This document shows, piece after piece, positions 9,163 to 59,334 of a stretch of DNA of 64,000 bases. The notes below the pieces were generated by a model. That model saw only the letters and a program-made list of their open reading frames with translations, searched no databases and was not told the DNA's origin. The position numbers and the translations under genes were made by a program. Within the stretch, counting starts at the first letter, position 1; each line of letters opens with the position of its first letter. The stretch lies in NCBI GenBank assembly GCA_973895155.1, contig OZ316892.1, positions 18,032,357 to 18,096,356 on the forward strand, written 5' to 3'. This DNA is from Marsupella aquatica. Lineage: Eukaryota; Plantae; Marchantiophyta.

Positions 9163-9623
9163 ACTTAACTTGGTGTCGCATCCTTCGTAGCAAAACCCTA
9201 ATCCGGTATTACTCCATATGGCCAAATCGTCGCACTTTCTACTGTTAATCCCCTAGCCATCTTACTAAAGTCATTCCCACCTACTACTGATCCCTTTAAA
9301 TACTTGATCTGTTGTCTTCTACTTGAGTAATATATCTGCAGTAATATGCACCGCTATTTCCTCGCTTGCTGGTCCTTTTTATGGTTCTTCATTGGCGTTG
9401 ATTCTCCTTTGCTTGTTGTAAACAGAGAAAATAATTAAATAGAATTAGTAGAGAAATGTCAAGTAGAAGACAACAGGTCAAGTATTTAAAGGGATCAGTA
9501 GTAGGTGGGAATGACTTTAGTAAGATGGCTGGGGGATTAACAGTAGACAGCGCGACTATTTTGGCCTTATGGAGTAATACCGGATTAGGGTTTTGCTACA
9601 AAGGATGCGACACCAAGTTAAGT
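9163..9623. repeat. Inverted repeat with ~165-bp arms (9163-9326 and 9459-9623)
   Basis: The arms are reverse complements with a few mismatches. The left arm is flanked by the direct repeat GAGTAATATATCTGCAGTAATAT at 9140-9162 and 9325-9347. Confidence 0.9.
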
Positions 9624-14164: not shown

Positions 14165-14940
14165 TTTTTATGCACAAAGTGTTGCAAACAGGATCCGGGC
14201 GGTTATTTTCTTTTGCAAAACCATCCTCCCCTATTTGTGACCAATCTTGCTGATGTGGCACTTTGTGGTGCAGGGGATTTTGTTGGGGACCTCTCACGGG
14301 GTCCGTAATGAGCTAACAATGTACTAATAGAATATTCCAATTATCATTCAACATATCCAATTGTCATGACAATAACAAATAGAATTAGTGAGAAAATGAT
14401 CATGATACTGACTACCCAAGTTACTAATAATGAACATTCAAAACTCCACTTTTGGACAGTATATCATTTAAAACATTAGAATCTATGCTAAGAGTTGGTG
14501 TAGAAATATCATTACAATCTTTTTTTATTGACAATTTAAATGACCAAGACATAGAAAATTCACTTATGGTTGTCAACTTTTCTTTTCTAGAAAACCAAAT
14601 TAAGCACTCACTATCCTAATATCCTAATTAAATGTCAATGTAGTAAGGTGATAAAGAAGAAAATAACAATTTATTCTTTAACAACTAGTTTTTGTTCTTG
14701 CTAAAAGTGAATAAAATCTGAAATCTGAAAATTGTATACAATTTGAATTGTTTAAAATCAACATTCCTTAGGTTGAGGAAATTTTCTAATGATTTCTTTA
14801 CGGACCCCACTGAGGAGTCCATAACAAAATCCCTGGCACAAGGATGCGTCATATCAGCGAGGGCGGCAACAAACAGGACATGATGGTTTTGCAAAGAAAA
14901 TAACCGTCCAGATCTTTTTTGCGGCAATTTGTGTGTAAAA
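14165..14940. repeat. Diverged inverted repeats (about 14165-14308 and 14798-14940), probable DNA-transposon termini
   Basis: ...GGTTATTTTCTTTTGCAAAACCATC...GGGGTCCGTAA is the reverse complement of TTACGGACCCC...GATGGTTTTGCAAAGAAAATAACC, with sharp inner ends at TAA/TTA. Confidence 0.65.
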
Positions 14941-15021
14941 TTTTGGCTATAAATTCTAGGAGGAGATTAACTTTTTTGTATAACAACCATTTTATTTACT
15001 TTCTGATTTTTTTGTAAATTC

Positions 15022-15870: not shown

Positions 15871-16949
15871 AAACAGGACATGATGGTTTTGCAAAGAAAA
15901 TAACCGTCCAGATCTTTTTTGCGGCAATTTGTGTGTAAAATTTTGGCTATAAATTCTAGGAGGAGATTAACTTGTTTGTATAACAACCATTTTATTTACT
16001 TTCTGATTTTTTTGTAAATTCAATGTATTCATAGAAATAATATATTTTTCATATTAAATTTGGATAAGTAACCAGATAAATCAATGTTTGATTGCAAGCT
16101 GTAGTTAAGTAACTACCCTTGAAACAGGTAATCGCCTAAACAAGTAGCCTTTGGTTTGTGCTTTCGACCATCGAGATCCCATTGCACCATCGGAAAATTG
16201 AAGCTTACTCATCATAGGCAGAAAACAAAGTGGGGCCACAACATCTCCATGTCAACAAGATATTGTCGCATGTGGAGCATTGCTCTCAAAGAAAGAACCA
16301 GCTTCACAATGAGTGAACTGTTTCCATGTCTGTGATTTTTTATTCATGTTGTTGACAATGTTTTGGTTAATAAGGTTACAGAATAATGTGTCAATTCATG
16401 GAGCTGGCAGCAAAGAGAGTTGGCAATATCGATAGAAATTGAGAGTAAGAATGAGATTTGAACTGCAGGTTTTATGTGTGAGAAGATGTTGATAGCTATG
16501 TGTGTTTACTCCAGAGCCGATTGTGCTCGATCACATTTTGTTGCAAATTGAATCAGGCACACATGAAACTTTCCGACTCTTATAGAGAAGTGCCTAAATT
16601 TGACTTGGAATGGTCTAGGGAGCACAGAGTTTGCCTATCAACTTTGTAAGATAGGGATCAATTCTCTTGAGAATTGGAGCTCGTGATGCAAGGCAATTTT
16701 GTAAGACTAGAGTTTGCCTAACAGCGCTATAAGATTAGGAGCGATTGCTGTCATTCAATTTTGCAACTAAACAAAAAGATGAATTTTGTATTGTGACAAA
16801 GCAATTACTTGATCATAGAGCAACTTTATGTTTTGTCAGTTTTGTGAGCTTTTCATATTAGAAAATGGTTTGGAATGCTTAATAAAGTCCCCACAGATGT
16901 TTTCCGTTTTGCATCCTCTCGTCTTTTCCTTGCCCTTCGTGCCTTCTTC

Positions 16950-45475: not shown

Positions 45476-47415
45476 ACATACTCAGTATTAAGAAGCGAAT
45501 GAGTATCACTTATTGTAATAGTACCAAAGAAAGCAACTCCTGATGGCAAGACCAAAATCCAAGTGTGCCAAGATTTTTAAAAGTTGAATGCTGCAAACAG
45601 GAATGATCATTACCTTTACCCTTCATTGATATAGTACTAGATTTAATTGCTTTGCATGAGTTGTACAACTTTTTGGACGACTATTTAAGTTACAACCAAG
45701 TGTTAATAAGTAAAGATGTCACTTGTCTACCCAACCATTTATACGTAAAATACTACTCTCCTGTGCATAAACTGTTGGTATCATGTTACGGGGTCATGGA
45801 GGGACGCTATTTGGAGGATTTCCACACCTAAGGATGAGTATATTTAATTCCGCTCCCGGAAATGTAATTTTTGATCAAGTCTACCGACTAGCCATTCTCT
45901 GCTTTTGATCAAGTCCCATGGACTACACCACACACACACACACACACACACACTTCTACTGGTCGTTGTGGAGTGCTGTCACCACCCCCCTTTCCTTACT
46001 TGGTTGACCAACCCAAGCAAGGATTCCTTAGACACTTCCTGGGAAAGAACACAATCGTGAACCGGAAAACATAACGCAACACCAAACTTGAGAAATCAAA
46101 TCAAATCCATATCATTTGGTAAAAAGGATAACACATTGCAAGGACAACCTAGCCTCCTGCCGTCTGTCCAACTCCTGCCTCAATGGGGCAAGCGCTACCC
46201 TCTACCTCACTACTCTGACTCGGTTCCTCCTTCTGGTCCTCCGCTAACTTCCCGTAAGCAAACACTATACTGAGTTCCCCCCTAACTACTACAGGGCTCT
46301 CCCCCTAAATACCAAAAAACACACCAAAGCACCCCTCACGGGGCCACAACGATGGTGGCTTACCCTAGCGGCGCCGCTAAACCCTTCACTAAGAAACCCC
46401 TAAACTAAAAGCATGCGGCACACACATACTTCTAAAACCCTAAACCCTAAACTAACAATGGGGCCGATGGTGCTTTTGACGGCGCCCCAACATTACCCCG
46501 TGAACCCTGAAATTGCAAGGAACCCCACAATGGCCGAAACTAGGTGCCCTTCCACTTGCACTTCTGAGTTCACCCCTGGATAGCCCTCCTCCTCCTGATC
46601 ATGAATCACTCAATCGCTCATGAAACGGACATTGGACGACCAAGTTATGGCCGTTTCAGTATCCCATAAACCCAACTTCGCCAGGCCCTAACTTGCTCAT
46701 CCTGGCTCCGTTTGAGTAGCACCGCCTCTTGTTGGAATCAGCTCCGCGAGCTCTTTCCAACAAGCCCGTGAGTGACCCCTCACAAAAAAGTTGGAAAGTC
46801 AAGGGGCCGTACAACTACGTCCGTACGACCACTCTAATCCTCATCCTCTTCACTCACGGTGCCCTGGCTTGAGCCCCGTGAGTGGGCCTCCTCATCACTC
46901 TCCACTGGATCCACTGGAGTGAGTGCCACTTCAATCCTCTTCTTCTTCACCGGGGTACTCCTTGTGCTAGTGCTCCCCTGCTTCCTCAATTTGTCCAAGG
47001 CCTGTCACGCCTTGATGTACCCCTCACCAATGGTGTCCTTCCATAAGGCCGCCTCTTCACCAGACTGCAACTCCAACGGTAAAACCTGCTTGGTGGCCAT
47101 GGGAGTCCCAGGGGTGACAGATCGGGGTGGCATCCCCGTGTTGACCTAAGCCTCTCGTAACGATTTGCGTACCTCCCTGAGCTTCTTCTCTAAGCTCTTA
47201 CTCTTCTCTTGACTCTTCTTGGCTGCATCCAACAGGGGTCCATACTTCCCACTGACTTCCTTCACCACCATCTCAATGGCCCTGGAGATCAAATCCGGGG
47301 AAAGGGTGGAGCTAGGTGTGCAGGGGCTCTTCCGTTTCCCTAGACCCAAGGCCTCACTCCTCTTAGCCCTTGTCTCAAAGATCACCATTTGACTCCGTAG
47401 TGCTCCCACCTGGGC

Positions 47416-47745
47416 TGTCACACCATTCTAGGTAGTGTTAGAGTGTATCGTACTATCTAGATCCATATGTTTGGTATGTGTGCTATATGAGCCAATAAGG
47501 TTCCGTCAGGTTTGTGTGAGAGGGTACTTCTCACTTGTGAGGCATTGAAAGGTCATCTTTCAATGTTGAGCCTTGGAGAGAGAGGAGCTTGAGTGGCTAT
47601 GGTGGCTGTGAGCTCCGCTTGTGTAACGTGGATTCCTTGAGTAGTGCAAGGTGCATTGGCTTGACATACGTGTGTGATCGGATCGGTGCGGGATCGATGG
47701 GGTATTGTTGACCGGGATCGTTGTGCCGATTGTATGGAGATTACA
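47416..47745 (+). repeat. Repeat A1 (3' part of the LTR)
   Basis: Matches 55563-55886 with 5 substitutions and one 4-bp indel. It starts TGTCAC and ends ...GGAGATTACA. Confidence 0.92.
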
Positions 47746-47754
47746 TTGAAAGAT
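47746..47754 (+). promoter_or_regulatory. Putative self-priming primer-binding site
   Basis: ACATTGAAAGAT (47743-47754) is the exact reverse complement of ATCTTTCAATGT (47555-47566) inside the LTR. There is no TGG-type tRNA PBS. Confidence 0.6.
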
Positions 47755-48891
47755 CATGAGCTTCAAACTCTGTTGTGCGGACAGAAGCTCAGTCTGAGTT
47801 TATCGTTGACGGTGACGGTTCGTGGTAGCTCAAATCAATTGGATTTGTGTTTGACGCGGATCCATGTTTCTTGAATCGTTGGTTCTATTGTTTGAGTACT
47901 CTGTTGCTATTCGATCTGGTTCTGGCCAAGCTTGAACGTTGTTGGATCTGGATCTGGTCTAGATCTGGATTGAGTCGGAGTCTAGATCTGGATCTGGAAA
48001 GAGATGGCCGAAGGTTGCTGCTTGTATCGCACTATTGTTTTGTGGACAGATCTGTTGGAATTTTGAGTGCTCGCAGTGTTTTATTGTCAAGGGATGCTTG
48101 CGAAATGTCCCAAAACCGTGCGCGACAGGTTTGCAGAGGTCGAGAGCCATCGACGTTGCCGTTTTTGCGAAGGAAATCGTTGCTTTTGAGTGGCAAATAT
48201 TGCCATTTTTGAGCCCAACGACTTCTATTTTGTGTACACACACAACTGTGCGCGCATAAGGTGACGCGTGAGGTCATCCATCCCGAAAGTGCTCCCAACC
48301 GCGAGCGCAAGCAAGCGCGAGGTCGAGGTCACCCATCCCAGGGCTATTCCGGGTCGTGAGCGCGAGGGGAGGCACGAGGTCGACCACGAGGAGGTCACCC
48401 ATCCCGGGGCTATTCCCAGCCGCAAGCGCTTAACTAGCAACTCATCCCACCTTGTGTACACACAAGTTTTCACAACTTGTTGTTTAGATTCAAGCGCCAG
48501 GGGGCTTTATACACTTTCCGGTTTGCTTAGAGCCTTGTTTCGGGCCAAATCATAGGCTCTTTAGAGGTTTTTGATAGTTTTAAGTTCATCTAAATACACA
48601 AATTGAACCAATTGTGCATGGTTTTTCATCTATAACATTGGGACATCATGAAGCCTATTATGAAGGCCTTTCATTGAACATTATGAATATTGGTTTGATC
48701 AATGTGTGATCACTCTTGGTGTGGAGAGTTAGTGTTTGACTATTCTTGTTGATTGGATCCTCTCCACACTTGTTTCCTGTTTATGCGTCATGTTGGTTCA
48801 GTGTGTGCGCTTGATTCCATAGGAGTGATCCGGGTTTGCAACTGGACATTCTAGTGTGCTGTGTATTTCTCTCCTGGTGATGTTGGAGTGA

Positions 48892-49520
48892 TTCTTTGAG
48901 GTACTGAAGCAGAACTATCAGGGTGTAAGAACTGATAAGTTGAAGGGTCTTTAGGAGTTCCAGCGCAAGACTGGAGAGAGTCTATATGAGGCATACACTC
49001 GTATGCGTAGATTAATCACTGTCACCAAGGGAGTGACAGAGGCTCAGGCAGTCCAGTTTTGGTATGCAATTCTGGACAGAGAATTGCGACGCAGAGTGAG
49101 AGATGTCACTTTGCTTAGGGATGCAGATCCCACATTAGCAGTTGTTTTTACACTTTCTGAGCGCATTGAGCTCAATATGGTGAATGAGAAGGTGGTGACT
49201 TCCGGATTTGCCAAGGAAGCACCAAAGGCTGCATCCACATCCACACCATAGCCTACTGCACGGAAGAGCCAGAGGGAGAAGCCTACTGCACGAGAGTCTA
49301 CCAGCCAGAGACCTGTGCCCTCTTATGTTGGACAGCAGTCAGGATGTTGGACCTGTGGTGAGGATCATGCACAGAGATATTGCCCAGATCATAGAGGATC
49401 AGGGGGAGCATTAGCGCCTGATCAACGATAGTGTGATCACTGTGGAGCTCCTGGACACACCAAGGATAGGTGTTTCTCACTCCATCCTGAGTTACGGAGA
49501 GGAGGATCCCATACACATGA
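48892..49520 (+). pseudogene. Gag remnant with two zinc knuckles
   Basis: EFQRKTGESLYEAYTRMRRL (retrotransposon gag major-homology-like), CWTCGEDHAQRYC (from 49345) and CDHCGAPGHTKDRC (from 49432). In-frame stops are present and the N-terminus was not found. Confidence 0.82.
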
Positions 49521-50254
49521 TCAGGGAACAGCTAGCTGCCATGGCTAGTTCCCAGGTGAGACCTACTTCTGGTGATGGGGCATCAACATCCTATGGACCT
49601 TCCACATCCCATGGTCCTTCCACATCTTATGGAGCTGATAGAGACCTTGCCACCATGGGATTCATGTGTGGCACTGCACACATTGATGCATCAACAGCTT
49701 TGACAGGTGGGGCAGCCAAAGCTCTTGAGCCCCGAGGAGTAGTAGTGGAGTTAGATCCACAAAGGGGGGGTGCACGTCGGCAGACAAAGCTTCCTCAGTC
49801 TTTTACATTGTCAGAGACAGTTCAGACTGCCTCTATGAACCCGGTTTGGACAAACCCTGATGTGGGTAAGTTGGCAAAATCAGGTAGTGATGCAGCAGGG
49901 ATGACAGGTACCTTGTTGGGGGCGGCTACTGCCATGGTATGCGCCCCATTATTTTCAGCGACAGACATGCTGAACTTGGAAGTTGGTCCTACAGAAGTGT
50001 TCAGATTGGCAGCTACACTCTGTGAGGACACTCCAGTGGTTGCTTCCCATGCAAAAGCAACTTGCAGTGTTGATATAGTGAAGACCATGCCACCTACTGT
50101 TACTAGTGAGACATGGCATGCAACAGCAGCGAGGTTGGTGGATTTACCAGCACGCCCTGCATTTGAGAGGACTAGGTTTAAACCTAGTGTTGTATCATTG
50201 GATAATCGGAGTGGTATCTTCCGATTAGTTGGGCCTTCTGGAGCAGTATACTAG

Positions 50255-50600
50255 CCAGAGAGGGTGTTACTGGATACTGGTGCTCATCCCTTGATGTTGG
50301 GAAAGTCTGCCATATGTGGATTGGGATTGCGTCCAGAGGATTTGGAGGATTGTCCCTTTCCCATTCAGACTTCATTGGGGGGACCTACACCTACACAGCA
50401 CATTACCAGGAGACCTCTTGATTTGAGGATTCAGGAAGGTCATACCACAGATAGCTCACAGATACAGGCGCGAGCTATTCTAACTAAGGCATAGTCATAT
50501 GATGTGTTGGTGGGATGTACAGTGCTCTACCCCATGGGATTTATTCTTGATTTTTGGGAGGAATCAGTGTCATATAGACCTGATTGGCAGTCAGGAGATG
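50255..50600 (+). pseudogene. Retropepsin aspartic protease
   Basis: RVLLDTGA (Asp at 50273) and downstream SYDVLVG, in the same frame as the MTase and RT. Confidence 0.85.
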
Positions 50601-50980
50601 CTTGATTGAGAAAATTGCCAGTGAGATTTAGTGGACCTATGGGAGGCCCTAAATCCACACCATTGTCTTTGGCAGCATTCAGTGGTCTAATTGCTGGACC
50701 TGATGATTTGATTGAGGGTAATGCGCATGCAGCAGATGTTCCACCATTGGAGGAGTCTCATAAGGAGCACATCATGCGAGGATTACCTATTGGCAGTGTT
50801 GTGCCACCAGTGTGGGGCACTGCACAGGCCTTGCCACAGACAGCAGCACAATTGGTACATGATGCATGGCGTCATGCTTTTACACCACAATCAGGAGCAC
50901 GACAGCCTCTTGCAGATGGACCTGTGACTCTTTCACCATTGGATACCACTCCTATTGCTTGGCAGTATCCACCGGAGGGT

Positions 50981-51930
50981 ATTTGTTTGTTGGATCTTTT
51001 TGGTGGGATTAGCATTGGATTGGCTGCTGTTCTTCAGGTAGGAATTCCTGTGCGTCGTTATTTGTATGTGGAGTCAGATGAGACAGCACGGAGGGTCTCA
51101 TTGCGACATGTGGCTATGTTGGTGGATAGATATCCACAGTTGCTGCCAGTGGATGCTGTTCGTGGTTATCAGCATGCACTACCTGCTGATATTTCATTGC
51201 TGGGGGCAGATCATCTACATCGTGTTGGCCCCATTGATTTGGTGATTGCTGGTTGGCCATGTCAGGGCCAATCTAGAGCTGGCGTTGGGCATGGACTTCA
51301 TGATCCACGCTCTGCATTGTTTTGGGAGATGTTATGGGTGCTGCGTCATCTCCAGCTACATCAGACACAGTCTCCAACATACATTTTGGAGAATGTGCCA
51401 TTGTTAGGTGATGATCGTAGTCGGATTGTTGCCAGTGTTCACCAGGTGAGGTCTTGGATTGGACCTGCTGTGTTATTGGATGCTGCACGTGTGGGTTCTC
51501 ATGCACTTCGTCCACGCTTGTGGTGGACTAATTTGATCCCATGTGAGGTGCTGAAGCGCGCATTTGACAGCATTCCATGCTCACCAGCCTTAGTGGTGGA
51601 TGATATTTTGGATCCAGGGTGTCGTGCACAGGGTGTGACCCAACCTGATAGACCTCCATTGGCAATGGTCAATGCAGTTGGGTGCCCACGTTGTGCATTA
51701 CCCACTCTTGTAAGCCACTCTACTTCATATGCATTCAAAGCAGGTGGCCCTGGACTTGTGTGGGACACAGCTCTCCAGCAGTTAGTGGAACCTACTGCTG
51801 ATGAGAGAGAGCGTGCTATGGGATTTTTGACTGGCACCACTGCAGTTGCCTCTGTGTCAGAGGGTTTGCGGCGCCAGGTTCTTGGTCAAGCAATGGACCT
51901 AAATTGTTTGACTTGGATTATCAGCTTGGG
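50981..51930 (+). CDS. DNMT3-like C5 cytosine DNA methyltransferase domain within the pol frame (ORF 50606-52117)
   Basis: Motifs in linear order: I LLDLFGGIS, II YVESD, III ADI, IV DLVIAGWPCQGQS (catalytic Cys codon at 51260), V SALF, VI YILENV, VII-VIII LLDAARVGSHALRPRLWWTNL, IX ERERAMGF, X RRQVLGQAM. Confidence 0.92.
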
Positions 51931-52267
51931 AGTAGCTGAACAGTTGCGGATGCGCTCTGCTGGAATTACTGATTGTCCCTTGGTGAGCTTGCGGTCCACT
52001 GAGACAGTACTGACCATAGCTGGGGGTGAGCAGACAGTCCATGGACCTATGGCAGGATTGGCCAAGGCTGGACAGATTGTTGAGCAGGAAGGGACTGCTC
52101 AATCTACTGCTAAATAGCAATCATCGGCTATCTCTTCTACCCTACAAAGAGATATTAGGGATTTGGTGGAGAGTTGGGAACCACAGCTTGGCCCTAAGTT
52201 GATAGGGGAGGAGAGACGTCGCATGCATCGATTCCTGAAGAGTTACTGAAATTGTTTTGCATTTAGC

Positions 52268-53616
52268 ATGAAAGATTTGGGGACATTAAATGGTCCTGGT
52301 ATTCAGATTGAATTGGCTAGTGATGCGCCAATCTTTCGTAGGCCATACCGTTATAGTGACATGGAGAGAGCTCTGATTCAAAGCAGAACTCAAGATTTGT
52401 TGGAGACTGGATTGGTGGAGATTTCATATGGGGAGTATGCATCTGCCACAGTGATGCCAGCCAAGAAGGATGTGCATGGTAATTACACAGATAGGCGCAT
52501 GTGTGGTGATTACAGACCCATTAATCGCCAGACAAAATCTGATAGATATGCCATGCCCACACCTGAGGAGATCTTTGATGTTGTGGGGCATGCAAAGGTT
52601 TTCAGTTCATTGGATTTGAGGGCAGGGTACCATCAGCTTCCAATTAGGCATGCTGACAGGTCCAAGACAGCATTCTGGGGGATTGATTCTTATGGCAAAG
52701 ATCGTTTGTATCAGTGGTTATTCTTACCATTTGGGTTGAAGAATGCACCAGCTAAGTTCCAGAGAGTCATGGATCGAATCCTTGCAGGTTTGGATTTTGT
52801 CAGATGTTATATTGATGATATTTTGGTCTATTTTTCTACTGTGGAAGAACATCACAGCACTTGCAGACTATGTTGGAGAGATTGAGAGCACATGGGTTGA
52901 AGCTCCATCCTAGCAAGTGTAAGTTCTTCCAAGACCAGATTGAGTATTTGGGCCACACTATATACCTAGGGGGATTGGGTGTACATCAGACTAAAGTGGA
53001 GGCCATTACACAGATTCCTTGTCCTACTGATGTGAGTAGAGTTTGTGCATTCTTGGGATTGGTGAGCTACTACAGGAGGTATGTTAAAGGATTTAGCCAG
53101 CTTGCTAAACCTTTGACCATACTCACTAAGTTGGATCAGGAATGGATTTGGGGTGATGACCAGGAGCATGCCTTTCAGGAGTTGAAGCAAAGGTTGGCAT
53201 CATCCCCTATTTTGAGAAGACCCATTTCAGGCAGACCATTTCAGCTACACACTGATTGGAGTGGAGTAGGACTTGGAGTAGTGCTGACTCAGAAGGATGA
53301 TGAGGGGAATGAGTTTGTTGTGGCTTATGCCAGTAGATCAAACAATTCAGCAGAGGCTAAGTATAGCTCTTATGAGGGAGAGTATTTGGCAGCAGTGTGG
53401 GCTGTTGCACACTTTCGTTGCTACTTGTTTGGTAACCCCTTCACCTTGATCACTGATCATCAGCCTCTTAAGTGGTTAATGGAGTCTGACAAGCTTACAG
53501 GGAAGCTTGCACGATGGGCATTGTTGTTACAGGAGTATGATTTCCAGATGGTGCATAGGCCTGGAAAAGTGAACTTGGATGCAGATGGATTAAGCCGCAA
53601 TCCATGTACCAGTTAG
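52268..53616 (+). pseudogene. Ty3/Gypsy reverse transcriptase and RNase H (one frameshift near 52860)
   Basis: RMCGDYRPIN, SSLDLRAGYHQ, LPFGLKNAPAKFQR, YIDD (52808-52819), YLGH, FQLHTDWSGVGLG, YSSYEGEYLA, TDHQPL, RWALLLQEYDF, NLDADGLSR. Confidence 0.96.
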
Positions 53617-53989
53617 CAGGATGAGACTGGAGCCAGATGACATGATGAGTCAGATAAGGAGATGGTGCCAGGATGACATGCATCTGCCTTTCTTTGTTGG
53701 GTGTCAGCATACAGTGGATCTGTGGACTCTACCTCATTGGATGGAGTGGATGATGAGTCTTCAGATGTGGATGTTGGTGAGGTAACTTTTGGACAGCAAG
53801 ATATTCACAATGATGTGAGAGTGTTGGAATATCTGCGCACTGGTTCTATTGTTGGCAGTGTTGATGCCAAAGAAAGTGACAGGGTTCTACAAAGAGCCAA
53901 GAGGTTTCGATGGGAGGGAAACCATCTTTTGAGAGTACTGCATGATGGTAGGGTGTTGGTGGTACCAAAACCATCACAACGAGTACATT

Positions 53990-55100
53990 TGGTGCGACAT
54001 GCACACGAGGAGTTGGGTCACTTTGGTGTGAAGCGCACTTATAGCTTGCTGCAGACACAGTATTGATGGCGTGGTATGCACACTCATGTCTAGCAGTTGA
54101 TAGCTAAGTGTGTGGTATGCGATAGAGTGAGAGCATCATTTAATACTCCCACTCCCCAGTTGTACCCGTTATCGATCATGGGTTTGGGATATCGTTGGAG
54201 TTTGGATTTTGCTGGTCCATTACCTCTTACCCAATGCCATAATTGGTATGTTTTGGTCATGGTGGAGCACTTCTCCAAGTGGATTGAGCTAGTGGCGTTG
54301 CCAGATAAAGCCAGTGGAGGAGTTGCTGCTACATTTTTGGATCGCGTACTCAGTCATTTTGGAGCACCAGCTGAGGTGTTGACTGATCAGGGAACTGAGT
54401 TCCGTGGAGAGTTTGAGAGTTTGAGAGTTTGTGTGAACAAGCTTTGATTGATCATCGTACTACCTCTCGTGATCATCCTGAGGCAGATGGATTAGCTGAG
54501 AGAGTTGTGCAAACTGTGAAGAGAGGATTGCGTAAATATGGCTTGCAGGTTGGTCATCTGGGAGATTGGGATCTCCAGCTACCTTGGTTAGCTATGGGCT
54601 ACTGTTTCAGTCGGCAAGCATCACTTGCATCCTTCTCACCTTACTTTTTGCTCTATGGTAGAGAGCCAGATTTGCCAATAGCTATTCGTCGTGATGCTGC
54701 ACCAGTTGTGAACTTGGATGATCCTGATGTTTGGGTCAAGGTGTGTTCAAAGAGAGCATGGGTATTTCAGAGAGTGATGCCCATGGCTTTTGACAACCTT
54801 GCCATTGCCCAACATCGTGATACTTTGAGGTATGCCACTATTCGTGGAGGAGGTTACCGTGCAAGCATTCGATAATTTCATCTTGATGATTATGTTTATT
54901 TGCAGCAGACAGCACTCACAACACTTGATGTGACCGCAGGCCGGACAATCTTACGTGTGCGTGAAGTGTTACCTTCTAGTGTCCTGATGTTGGAGGGACG
55001 CGATGGTATGGTTTGGAAGGATCATGTTTGCAACTGTGCACCATGTCACCTTCCCAACATTGATGGTACAGTAGATCCAAGCTTGGCACATGTTCGTGCT
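53990..55100 (+). pseudogene. DDE integrase
   Basis: HEELGHFG...CVVC (HHCC), WSLDFAGP, LTDQGTEF, HPEADGLAER. An 8-bp duplication near 54420 causes a frameshift, and a few stops are present. Confidence 0.93.
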
Positions 55101-55109
55101 GGCTTGAAA

Positions 55110-55250
55110 TGTATGTTGTGTGGATCTGCTCAGGGAGCAGCTACTATGTTGATTTGTGATAAGTGTTCTAGAGGATGGCACATGTCATGTTTGACACCAC
55201 CATTGTAGGTGATTCCTAGTGGATCATGGTTGTGTCCTCAGTGTCGGTGA
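55110..55250 (+). pseudogene. PHD finger (C4HC3) at the integrase C-terminus
   Basis: CMLCGSAQGAATMLICDKCSRGWHMSCLTPPL*VIPSGSWLCPQCR* has all eight Zn ligands and one internal stop. Confidence 0.9.
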
Positions 55251-55410
55251 AGCCGACTAGTTATCATTTGTGTTCTCTTGGCAAATATGGATTGCAGGTA
55301 GGTGATCGATGGGGCTCACTTGCACCCGGCCTCCTGATCTTCACACCTAAAAAGGTGTATATCAACCTTGTAGAACTCATGGCTAGCTAGAGTTAGGGGA
55401 CCTTACTCCC

Positions 55411-55424
55411 AGCTAGGGGGCGAT
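55411..55424 (+). promoter_or_regulatory. Polypurine tract
   Basis: AGCTAGGGGGCGAT immediately precedes TGTGGG, the LTR start. Confidence 0.7.
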
Positions 55425-56023
55425 TGTGGGTTTTGGACATGTGTGGACATGAGTTCCACTTGTATTCCATTCTCTTGTGTTTGTGATGTGGCAGTGTGAC
55501 TATGTTTGGATGTATGTGACAAGCGATGTATGTTGTGTAGCGATGTGTATGCGCACGACAGCTATCACACCATTCTAGGTAGTGTTAGAGTGTATCGTAC
55601 TATCTAGATCCGTATGTTTGGTATGTGTGCTATATGAGCCAATAAGGTTCCGTCAGGTTTGAGAGGGTACTTCTCACTTGTGAGGCATTGAAAGGTCATC
55701 TTTCAATGTTGAGCCTTGGAGAGAGAGGAGCTTGAGTGGCTATGGTGGCTGTGAGCTCCGCTTGTGTAACGTGGATTCCTTGAGTAGTGCAAGGTGCGTT
55801 GGCTTGACATACGTGTGTGATCGGATCGGTGCGGGATCGTTGGGGTATTGTTGACCAGGATCGTTGTGCCGATTGTATGGAGATTATTGTGGGTTTTGGA
55901 CATGTGTGGACATGAGTTCCACTTGTATTCCATTCTCTTGTGTTTGTGATGTGGCAGTGTGACTATGTTTGGATGTATGTGACAAACGATGTATGTTGTG
56001 TAGCGATGTGTATGCGCACGATA
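55425..56023 (+). repeat. B1-A2-B2 terminal repeat block (LTR B+A followed by a second B)
   Basis: B1 55425-55560 and B2 55888-56023 are both 136 bp and differ at 2 positions. A2 55563-55886 matches A1. Confidence 0.93.
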
Positions 56024-56312
56024 GGGCTCTTAACTCCACCACTTCTCCAGAATTCTGCTTCTCTTTGGCCAATGCCTATTTCAATACTCCAACCTCTTCC
56101 GCTTCCTTGGCCTTGGTGGACAAGGCTCCCTTCAAGTTGGAGATCTCTACGTGAGCTGCTTGGAGAAGCTTAACCTTCTCATGAATGGCCTCCTCCTTGG
56201 CCTTGATCACCTCCTTCATAGACAGGGCACTCTGCTCCAAAGTCTCTACTCTGGCGATGGTCTGCTTGAGAGAATCTCTCAATGCGTGGACTAGCTTGAG
56301 TCCCTCATGGAC

Positions 56313-56612
56313 CCCCTCGCTTACACCCCGGCAGCCCCTTTCGGGGCTTCACCTACTCGTAGGGCGGCCCTTCGTCTCGCGCCCCACGGCTCGCGAGCTC
56401 TTCCTCCTCGCGGCTGCCCCTCGCTTACGCCCCGGCAGCCCCATTCGGGGCTCCGCCTACTCGCGGGGCAGCCCTCCGTCTAGCGCCCCACGGCTCACGG
56501 GCTCCTCCTCCTCACGGTTGCCCCTCGCTTACGCCCTGGCAGCCCCATTCGGGGCTCCACCTACTCGCGGGGCAGCCCTCCGTCTGGCGCCCCACGGCTC
56601 GCGGGCTCCTCC
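56313..56612. repeat. 104-bp GC-rich tandem repeat, about 3 copies
   Basis: cccctcgcttac(a/g)ccc.ggcagcccc.ttcggggct... starts at 56313, 56417 and 56521. Confidence 0.92.
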
Positions 56613-59334
56613 GCCATATTACACCGGGGCCAAGAAAAACTGTCGGGGTCTCCAAATATTAATGGGTGGTATCCCCTTAAGATGCCTAATTTTCTTCTCC
56701 CACAACGACAAGACCCAAGAGAGCAAAGGGTCAATTAAAAAAATAGTTCCTCCCTGGTTCAAATAGCCCCGGCCCTCCAGAGAAACATGAACACACACCG
56801 GGATGATTAACTTTTAAGAAATTAAAAAAAATTGAAAAACTCTTGTGTATATTGGCTTATTTATTTACATGCACCTTGCCAATAACACCTAATGGTGACC
56901 TTTCGAGATGGGGACCCCGTCACAAAAGAAGATAGGGATATTAAAATCACGTTCACCACCGACTGAGAATCTATACCTTTATCATGATACCATTCAGATT
57001 ACGTAATGTTCTAGAAACTTTTCAGAGGATCATGATGATCATTTTCTATGAATACTTGAAATATATTATGGAGATCTTCATTGATGATTTTGCGTTATTG
57101 GGTCAACTATTGATCACTTAATGTATTTGGAAAGAATTATTCAAAAATATAGAGAAGCTCAATTGTGCTTGCACCCAGAAAAATATTTTATTGGAATGAG
57201 ATAAGGCATCATACTCGGACTTGTTATTTTACAATGCGAGATTAAAATTGACAGAGAGAAAGTTTGTGTCATTGTAGAGCTTCAACCACCTCCTAATTTG
57301 AAACAACTTTGAGCCTTTCTAGGACATGTTGGGTATTAATGTCGTTTAATTTATAAGTATGTTGACCTTGCTTAAACAACTCTAACTCAATTACTGAAAC
57401 CATATAAATAATAAGTTTGGATTGAAGAGAGACAAAAAAATATTTCAAAATCTTAAGGATAAACTTATTACAGCCCCTATTCTTTCACTTTCGGAATGGA
57501 AATAAAAATTTTATATTTTTATAGATTCATAAACGTTTTTCATGAGAGAAAATCTCAGTTAGAAAGATAAAAATAATAAGGATCATTTGATTTACTATGT
57601 TTGTAGATAGATGAGAACGACGGAGAAAAATACATAATAACGGAACGAGAAACCTTAGCCATACTTTTTGCTTGCAAGAAATTTTGTCATTATCTTTTGG
57701 GTTACCAGATTATTTTTTATACAAATTATAACTCTCTAAAATATATGAGGGATCTATACATCCGGAAGACTTGCATGTTGAGTACTCTTGGTTCAGGAAT
57801 TTGATTTTGAGATACAAGTTTGTCCTAGCAAGCACCATGAGAATGTTAATTTTTTGTCCAGACTTTTAGGTGGAGAAAATAAGAATAACATTTTTGATGA
57901 TCTCCCAGATGAAAATATCTGGCACATTGAATTAGAAGCTTCAAAGTACTTTAACATTGTTGAGATATTGATTCATGATGTGTTTCTAGAAGGTCTTAAT
58001 GCAAAAAAGAGAACAAATTTTCCGCACAAAGTATGACCCTATACTTTTTAAAATTATTTTATTATATTAATTGATGATTATAGGATGTTGAGTGAGAATT
58101 TACAACTATTCATTACTGAAGAGTAATCATCAAAATATCTAAGAAATAATTTTATAAAACTAATAAATCTTGGAGCACATGCAAAGGTTTTATTGTTGTT
58201 TAAGTTATCAAATCAATTTCATCTATTTTTTAAGGAAATAAAATTTTGGTAAAAAAAATAAGATTAAATTTTTAATTTTTATAAAATATTAAATAAGATT
58301 TTTTGCATTATTATCCTGGAAAAAATCAAGATTGATTTAAAATACAAGCAATGAATGTCAAACAAAATATTGATTTAAATAAAACTTTGATGAAACAAAT
58401 AAACAATCTCTTGCAATCTAATACATTATCAACACGTATGACTCTACCGAATCAAGAAGGAAAAAACTATGGCGAATTGACAACGGATGCTACAATTAGA
58501 TGAAGAACCTAAGCTACTAGGCCCGAAGAAGAAATTCAAGCAGAAGAAGGAAAGCCAAGGTGAAATAGTGAAGGAAACACTCAGGTTGAAGGGAGAATTA
58601 CTATAGAGCCCAACCCCAGAAATCTGATTGAACTCTTACTTGGAAAAGAGTAGTCAACAATTCAAGGGAGAATCGGAAACAAGAGAGAATCCAGCCTAAC
58701 ACACAGAAGAAATATGATTGTTGAATGCAACACTCAATTGACTTCATCCTAGGACATTGCAAAAAGAACAAGAAACACTTGAGCAAAAATCACAAGGACC
58801 TCGCAGAGAGAATCAAACTCAGAACCACCCGAACCAACAAAAAAAGGTCTGGAACAAACACTAAAACAAGGAAAGGAAAAGCAGAAAGCTATGGAGACGA
58901 CAAAAGACCTGAAGAACAAATTCAAGGGGAAAGCAATTGAAGGATCAAGAAGAAACAGAATTGAGAAGTGAGAATTGAGAAAGTGACATTTCTCATAAGG
59001 AATGGAATGACCTAAGCACTCAGGACTACCCTGGGCATTGCCGTTGCACTCCACATTGCCCTGCTGCACGACGTTTCTTGGTAGAAATGGAGTAGACCAA
59101 GGTTGGCTCATTCTGTGTCCTCCCCGTAGCTTTGTTAATACAAGTAACAGAATGCAAGCATACTCCCATTCACATGTGATAGTCCTCCCACAATGCAGGG
59201 CGTCATCTCAGTCGTTGGCATTTGTGTAGGTGCCAACAAGAAGGTTAAGGACCAATGTTATTTAAAAAATGACGCCCATGATATAAAAGGTCCTTTTGAA
59301 CCAAGGGAAAACCTCACCCCGTGGAGATGTAACC

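Follow-up and report, generated by a model that had tools for sequence, protein, structure and literature searches.

Split direct repeats of the form A1-internal region-B1-A2-B2 are the layout of PAT-like, Ngaro and DIRS retrotransposons, and this layout equals a circle with two long terminal repeats (LTRs), a 2-LTR circle, opened at one B/A joint. DIRS-type repeats together with Gypsy domains have been described for KnitGypsy-Dnmt3 of Klebsormidium nitens (Fig. 4c legend; de Mendoza et al. 2018, PMC5890265, accessible text). Here we analyzed a 64-kb stretch of contig OZ316892.1 from Marsupella aquatica (the window), in which a Gypsy-like element at positions 47416-56023 has the same A1-internal region-B1-A2-B2 layout. 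We think it rather probable that this element was inserted by its own integrase from head-to-tail joined cDNA, at a predicted opening within an LTR-internal palindrome, GACA-GC-TGTC. As in PAT-like, Ngaro and DIRS elements, the layout is seen in this orientation only. However, the present element differs from them in its DDE integrase, its TG..CA ends, its 4-bp target-site duplications, and the polypurine tract and primer-binding site that meet at its A/B joint.

KnitGypsy-Dnmt3 resembles the window element in combining a Gypsy pol and a Dnmt3-like DNA methyltransferase (DNMT) with DIRS-type repeats, according to the accessible text of PMC5890265. However, the best K. nitens protein (P0107) is 37% identical to the window DNMT (E 3e-26) and has no Pfam match. 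Neither termini nor duplications, a palindrome, a primer site or a mechanism are described in the accessible text of that paper or of its supplement. A literature search for a Gypsy or integrase-bearing element with split repeats, or for such a mechanism, yielded this paper alone, with most subscription journals outside its coverage. For a DNMT-bearing Gypsy element, this layout is therefore already in print; the preliminary description of the locus had considered that, if shared by other copies, it would be an undescribed integration route. In this search we found no published account of the termini, the duplications, the internal palindrome, the self-primer or the route of integration.

Integrase cuts 2-LTR circles at palindromic junctions between the LTRs, according to the accessible parts of reports on prototype foamy virus (PMC1180852) and HIV-1 (PMC1905944, PMC4372172). 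Panganiban and Temin put a circle junction inside spleen necrosis virus, and the substrate that retroviruses normally use turned out to be linear DNA (PMC11054761, accessible part). These systems share with the present one a twofold-symmetric CA..TG junction that can be opened to integration-ready ends. In retroviruses, however, the palindrome lies where the natural ends are joined, and this route is disputed or of minor importance, whereas in the window family the palindrome is internal to the LTR, the joint of the natural ends is non-palindromic, and the internal site is used by every integrated copy seen.

The four repeat blocks of the element (Table 1) were located by repeat finding and blastn, and their differences were counted by global alignment. 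A1 (47414/47416-47743) and A2 (55561/55563-55886) were 97.3% identical, differing by 5 substitutions and an indel of 4 bp (TGTG at 47513-47516), while B1 (55423-55561) and B2 (55886-56024) were 98.6% identical, with 2 substitutions; the 7 substitutions and one indel reported earlier were thus recovered. No further copies of A or B were found elsewhere in the window. The left boundary reads ...CCTGGGC/TGTCACACC... and the right boundary ...GCACGATA/GGGCTCTT..., so the integrated termini are TGTCAC...CGA(C/T)A, of the TG..CA type, and lie in mid-LTR, as had been claimed. An element-free joint from 47411 to 56024, in which five letters fit either side, was present in Logan contigs of two runs (one contig each in X2 and X11), which makes the duplication GGGC, or GGGCT with the element's first T included, in line with the earlier reading. 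Because the flanks belong to a high-copy repeat, these joined-flank contigs show the empty site as other repeat copies have it. Both the insertion and its duplication of 4 bp are real, with 5 bp possible if the first T is counted.

Table 1 Features of the element and its target site in the window, and classes of right ends in related loci
Feature	Position	Strand	Basis or remark
Left copy of target-site duplication, GGGC	47412..47415	+	Sequence; empty-site joint
A1, functional LTR 3' part with U3 end, R and U5; left attachment half-site TGTCAC at its start	47416..47743	+	Repeat finding, blastn, alignment
Hairpin in A: primer-site-like arm (47543-47553) and predicted 11-nt self-primer ATCTTTCAATG (47555-47565)	47543..47565	+	Inverted repeat; 11/11 complement of 47744-47754; folds
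Predicted self-priming primer-binding site CATTGAAAGAT, directly 3' of A1	47744..47754	+	Complementarity, folds; same arrangement with other sequence in related family
gag-like region, open frames 48955-49251 and 49415-50254	48955..50254	+	No family match; assigned by position only
Aspartic protease remnant, weak match	50255..50491	+	Asp_protease_2 E 0.0021, below curated cut-off; protease precedes DNMT in relatives P0030 and P0105
C5 cytosine DNA methyltransferase domain within pol	50606..52117	+	PF00145 E 2.2e-9; homologues
Reverse transcriptase and RNase H, two overlapping frames (frameshift)	52250..53616	+	RVT_1, RT_RNaseH, RT_RNaseH_2
RT_RNaseH part of the reverse transcriptase/RNase H region	52819-53616	+	Pfam
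DDE integrase: H2C2 zinc domain, rve core and C-terminal part, split over three frames	53677..54875	+	PF17921, PF00665
PHD finger closing pol, followed by stop	54876..55208	+	PF00628 E 6.3e-7; same integrase-PHD fusion in P0103
Polypurine tract AGCTAGGGGGCGA, adjoining B1	55411..55423	+	Sequence; kept as AGCTAGGGGGGCGA in related loci
B1, 5' part of functional LTR (U3 start), end CGACA	55424..55560	+	Repeat finding, blastn, alignment
Internal attachment palindrome at B1/A2, GACAGCTATC here and GACAGCTGTC in family	55557..55566	.	Sequence; contig depth; L001, L014
A2	55563..55886	+	Repeat finding, blastn, alignment
A2/B2 joint: U5 end (..GAGATTA) meeting U3 start (TTGTGGG..) without gap, head-to-tail joint of cDNA ends	55880..55893	.	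Sequence
B2, extra B copy that provides the half-site for attachment on the right (CGATA; B1 has CGACA)	55887..56023	+	Repeat finding, blastn, alignment
Right copy of target-site duplication, GGGC	56024..56027	+	Sequence; empty-site joint
Right ends B-A-B/flank, 5/15			L014, L016, L050, L051, L052=L055
Right ends B/flank, 10/15			L007, L023, L026, L030, L034=L041, L042, L045, L046, L048, L063

The polypurine tract adjoins B (AGCTAGGGGGCGA/TTGTGGG) and the predicted primer-binding site adjoins A (GAGATTA/CATTGAAAGAT), so the functional LTR is B+A and the expected linear cDNA is BA-int-BA, where int denotes the internal region. The A2/B2 joint, GAGATTA/TTGTGGG, places the last base before the primer site on the first base after the polypurine tract and thus unites the two cDNA ends, which bears out the B+A assignment made earlier. 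In a related family the tract is conserved as AGCTAGGGGGGCGA despite an otherwise different LTR sequence, and the A2/B2 joint is equally precise (...TTTTCA/GTTGTGG) in 4/5 distinct long copies. The joint in L051 (10838-10858) is aberrant, with a 20-bp insert that partly repeats the end of A and ends like a polypurine tract; such a variant is of the kind expected if A2/B2 is remade in each cycle. A class of contigs with a breakpoint at 55881 (7 in X1, 15 in X2 and 5 in X3) fits the window from AGATTA-TTGTGGG onward and has ...CATTGA and partly conserved sequence upstream, and probably represents the A/B joint of a diverged subfamily.

Tf1 is known for reverse transcription that is self-primed. 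In the window element, ATCTTTCAATG is the exact 11/11 complement of CATTGAAAGAT and forms a hairpin's 3' arm, with the primer site repeated in the 5' arm. At the equivalent position in L063, a member of the related family, AGTTCTTTGAG pairs with CTCAAAGAACT, again 11/11, with a different sequence. A stretch near the RNA 5' end complementary to the primer site, as in Tf1, sushi and Tcn1, was thus found in both. Among 14 related, decayed A1 copies the self-primer complement was mostly kept with 1-2 mismatches, and three copies had no match. The predicted folds of both families (minimum free energy and centroid) paired the first 11 nt with the primer site. The covariation of self-primer and primer site in two families points to Tf1-type self-priming. 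The likeness in features to the self-priming chromoviruses of the Tf1/sushi and Tcn1 groups lies in the lack of a tRNA-type primer site and in the element's own 5' 11-nt stretch, which complements a U5-adjacent site; self-priming has been predicted for the moss Tcn1 clade too (PMC6317226, accessible text). In the present element, by contrast, a PHD finger stands where those elements have a chromodomain, pol contains a DNMT, and the integrated ends differ from the LTR ends. In the leader between primer site and gag (48270-48429), a 39-nt unit occurs three times at spacings of 55-66 nt, and contigs of other copies have gains and losses in this part.

At the B1/A2 junction, the window copy reads CGACA-GC-TATCAC, and the family state is GACA-GC-TGTC, a 10-bp palindrome. 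A G at position 55564 accounted for most of the contig depth in X1 (80500/81468), X2 (111827/114922), X3 (5723/5914) and X5 (123/142, 87%), and this majority makes the family B/A junction the perfect palindrome GACAGCTGTC. The same palindrome occurs in L001 and L014, and in the other related copies the GC spacer varies by transitions. Without the GC, the halves of the palindrome are the integrated termini. The start of A and the reverse complement of the end of B have TGTC in common, whereas the natural cDNA ends share nothing.

Related loci were collected by a DNMT-based scan of metagenome contigs, which gave 80 loci with 35-64% protein identity. The end counts cover the related loci that share recognisable A and B, with 18 left ends seen (15 distinct) and 17 right ends seen (15 distinct); L001 is cut by the contig end after B-A, and L005 at the end of B. 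All 15 distinct left ends have the form flank/T(G/A/C)TCATGACC with unrelated flanks (13 with TG, TA in L051, TC in L030), the motif at the A half-site being T(G/A/C)TCATG. Each of the 15 distinct right ends terminates at the B half-site ...ACA (ATA in L026), after B-A-B or after B alone (Table 1). Matching 4-bp duplications (TACA, TGTG, TCTC, CATA and TGTT) flank 5/5 two-ended related copies, and 6/6 with the window copy included. Conventional LTR ends, which at both ends of all other copies would according to the preliminary description mark the window copy as a one-off, were found at 0/30 distinct ends in the relatives, and 0/15 distinct left ends were preceded by B or had the form A-B-A. 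Recurrent half-site ends with duplications had been named as support for a programmed route; this is the pattern obtained, and it speaks for such a route.

The same termini appear in the window's own family, in which contigs with diverse flanks stop at the end of B (at least 6 in X1, at least 6 in X3 and 13 in X5) and others begin at the start of A (at least 11 in X1 and at least 7 in X3). Two more distant lineages, L054/L056 and L080, end in B-A-B; A1 was not found in them, their contigs being too short or the 5' end diverged or lost. The A1...B1A2B2 layout is common to the whole family, and the shared half-site termini make it a family trait, neither a one-off nor an artefact. No solo A-B units were seen in the 80 loci, which carries little weight since the loci were chosen by their DNMT.

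These results suggest the following route, which we consider plausible. Self-primed, Tf1-like reverse transcription would yield linear BA-int-BA. Its natural ends would not be substrates for the integrase, as they form no terminal inverted repeat and, in the family, the U5 end has no CA. The U5 and U3 ends would be united, whether by formation of a 2-LTR circle or through end joining once the integrase holds the halves of the cut palindrome. The integrase would nick CA/GC on both strands of the palindrome beside the primer site, leaving CA-3'OH ends with 2-nt overhangs, and insertion would follow. The GC spacer and the whole of U3 would be transmitted via B1-GC-A2 in the transcript, and the role of B2 and the first 139 nt of A1 may be limited to supplying attachment half-sites. 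Because A-int-BAB alone keeps R at both ends of the RNA, only this form could found new copies, and the A-int-B copies would arise at least partly from later B1xB2 deletion. Of the earlier proposal that integration proceeded from cDNA circularised end to end, the joining of the ends agrees with the exact A2/B2 joint, whereas the circle is inferred only, and many relatives are A-int-B without A2B2.

Among other explanations, a tyrosine recombinase acting in trans, or lost from this copy, could have integrated a circle as in DIRS, PAT and Ngaro elements. The split-repeat layout alone would suggest this, and we give it hardly any credence. No match to PF00589 (Phage_integrase) was found, at E up to 0.1, in 90 six-frame segments of at least 45 aa, as the preliminary description had also concluded, and the relatives carry an rve integrase with a PHD finger. 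Furthermore, 4-bp duplications with TG..CA ends, the mark of a DDE integrase, occur in 6/6 two-ended copies; to our knowledge, elements with a tyrosine recombinase insert without target duplication. The presence of a single copy in the window could also reflect one aberrant integration, a rearrangement after insertion, or an assembly artefact. The layout recurs in five distinct related loci and L001 and in two further lineages, and it has been published for K. nitens, which refutes such a reading. With 0/30 conventional ends, a duplication directly flanking A1 and B2, and contigs of other runs ending at the same two half-sites, this reading is extremely improbable. More credible, if still improbable, is a DIRS/PAT-like cycle in which a transcript runs from A1 to B2, B1A2 serves as a bridging template that closes the circle, A2/B2 is inherited, and the integrase substitutes for the recombinase at the last step. 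In its favour, the layout is identical to the split direct repeats of PAT and Ngaro (compared in the accessible text of PMC5890265), and the mirror form, A-B-A-int-B, is missing here (0/15) as in those elements. However, the polypurine tract and self-primer site exactly flank A2/B2 in two families, which is predicted by LTR-type synthesis and unneeded in a DIRS model, and the 20-bp-insert joint of L051 is unseen in the other four long copies.

Linear cDNA is the usual major species, and it is conceivable, though on the whole unlikely, that both palindromes of linear BA-int-BA are cut and the middle is inserted, so that A-int-B would be the main product and A-int-BAB a rarer joined-end by-product and sole replicating form. 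B alone was found at 10/15 distinct right ends, each at the half-site, and the short two-ended copies L007, L030 and L063 all have 4-bp duplications. However, L030 and L050 are the same insertion, once in each form, so that a secondary origin of short copies can occur, and a family yielding mostly dead copies should be selected against. The depth at the B/A joint base 55564 was about 0.25-0.53 of that in neighbouring 13-nt bins, which would be compatible with many long copies, but contig depth does not measure copy number and was not used as evidence.

Several observations weigh against integrase-mediated insertion of joined-end cDNA through the palindrome. The excess of right ends with B only (10/15) means that A-int-B could be the main product, in which case a circle would be unneeded. 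The A2/B2 joint could be inherited and not remade in each cycle. The terminus classes were absent among the six loose-end rows listed for X2. The whole-RNA fold z-scores (-1.19 and -0.93) were not significant, and the specific 11-nt pairing alone was used. The related loci are all old, broken copies, so that decay may have reshaped the counts. Finally, the mirror form was found at 0/15 left ends and the long form at 5/15 right ends, whereas random opening of a circle at either palindrome should make the two about equally common. The preliminary description had listed the mirror form among possible support for a programmed route, and it was not found. Possibly the palindrome of the LTR proximal to the primer site becomes double-stranded first and is captured first, or the mirror form may decay faster through its two 340-bp A repeats 455 bp apart.

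The relation between the short and long forms is best seen in L030 (A-int-B) and L050 (int-B-A-B), whose right flanks are shared over 5 kb with 95-99% identity and the same first flank bases, and therefore represent one insertion in both forms. Deletion between B1 and B2 is the simplest account of the short form in this pair. A three-way alignment of the L030 B with B1 and B2 of L050 gave mosaic informative sites, mostly transitions, with no readable crossover point. Alignment of L030 (5780-13490) with L050 (5-7726) gave 91% identity inside the element and 99% over 4.3 kb of flank, a gap that fits faster C-to-T decay of a possibly methylated element. Differences among the family contigs are likewise mostly transitions.

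More broadly, we tentatively propose, as a possibility short of probable, that a streptophyte-wide clade of DNMT- and PHD-bearing Gypsy elements moved integrase attachment from the cDNA termini to an LTR-internal palindrome, which would make a joined-end, 2-LTR-circle-like intermediate obligatory. If true, a DDE integrase regularly uses an internal palindrome, and joined-end cDNA is a necessary intermediate and not a dead end. The family would then exemplify in nature the circle-junction model, long since abandoned for retroviral integration, and be a living link between LTR elements and DIRS, PAT and Ngaro, with split repeats arising before the swap of integrase for tyrosine recombinase. This would bear on the origin of split-repeat (DIRS-like) elements and on the substrates that integrases accept. 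Annotation is affected as well: LTR finders would match A1 to A2, take B1 for internal sequence and B2 for flank, and overlook the target duplication and all A-int-B copies.

Judged by its predicted coding content (Table 1), the element is a degenerate Ty3/Gypsy (Metaviridae) copy with protease, DNMT, reverse transcriptase, RNase H, DDE integrase and PHD finger. The Ty3/Gypsy pol order protease-reverse transcriptase-RNase H-integrase is present, with the DNMT inserted between protease and reverse transcriptase. The integrase matches (Integrase_H2C2 and rve) span 53677-54447, with an E value of 9.6e-12 for rve. Other traits of Ty3/Gypsy elements were also found, namely a DDE (rve) integrase, TG..CA termini, a short target duplication, a primer-binding site beside U5 and a polypurine tract beside U3. 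However, complete identical LTRs at both ends are lacking, with A only on the left and B-A-B or B on the right. The module order is repeated in relatives, with protease-DNMT in P0030, DNMT...integrase-PHD in P0103, and an rve integrase with a PHD finger.

Among named full-length relatives, the DNMT has its strongest matches in the liverwort Calypogeia fissa (60-66% identity). Matches over shorter parts come from Marchantia, Riccia and Sphagnum (36-71%), so that liverworts and Sphagnum mosses provide the closest named relatives. Closterium proteins match at 34-41%, and the nearest protein-atlas cluster is Streptophyta. DNMT-Gypsy relatives were thus seen in Calypogeia, Marchantia, Riccia, several Sphagnum species, Closterium and Klebsormidium, and the bryophyte and Closterium relatives make the DNMT-Gypsy clade wider than the K. 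nitens lineage event of 2018. One DNMT match is labelled as a protein of a cyanobacterial metagenome-assembled genome, and is probably from a mis-binned contig.

The very high-copy repeat that hosts the insertion occupies 46900-47415 and 56024-56350 of the window, with contig depth as high as that of the element. Its minus strand carries a coiled-coil frame (47146-47427 and 56076-56348), for which Pfam gives only weak coiled-coil matches. Immediately to the right of the insertion, a 104-bp unit is present in three tandem copies (56313-56624; 81-87% alike). Among the related loci, a 470-bp tandem repeat in L065 was considered as an LTR and ruled out, being unrelated to the LTR sequence, and a 470-bp tandem repeat in L057 lies ~2 kb beyond the expected 3' end of the element. 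Two further repeats in the window are unrelated to the element: a 151-bp direct pair 1 kb apart (14871-15021 and 15871-16021; 99% identity) and a 165-bp inverted pair (9163-9326 and 9459-9623; 95%).

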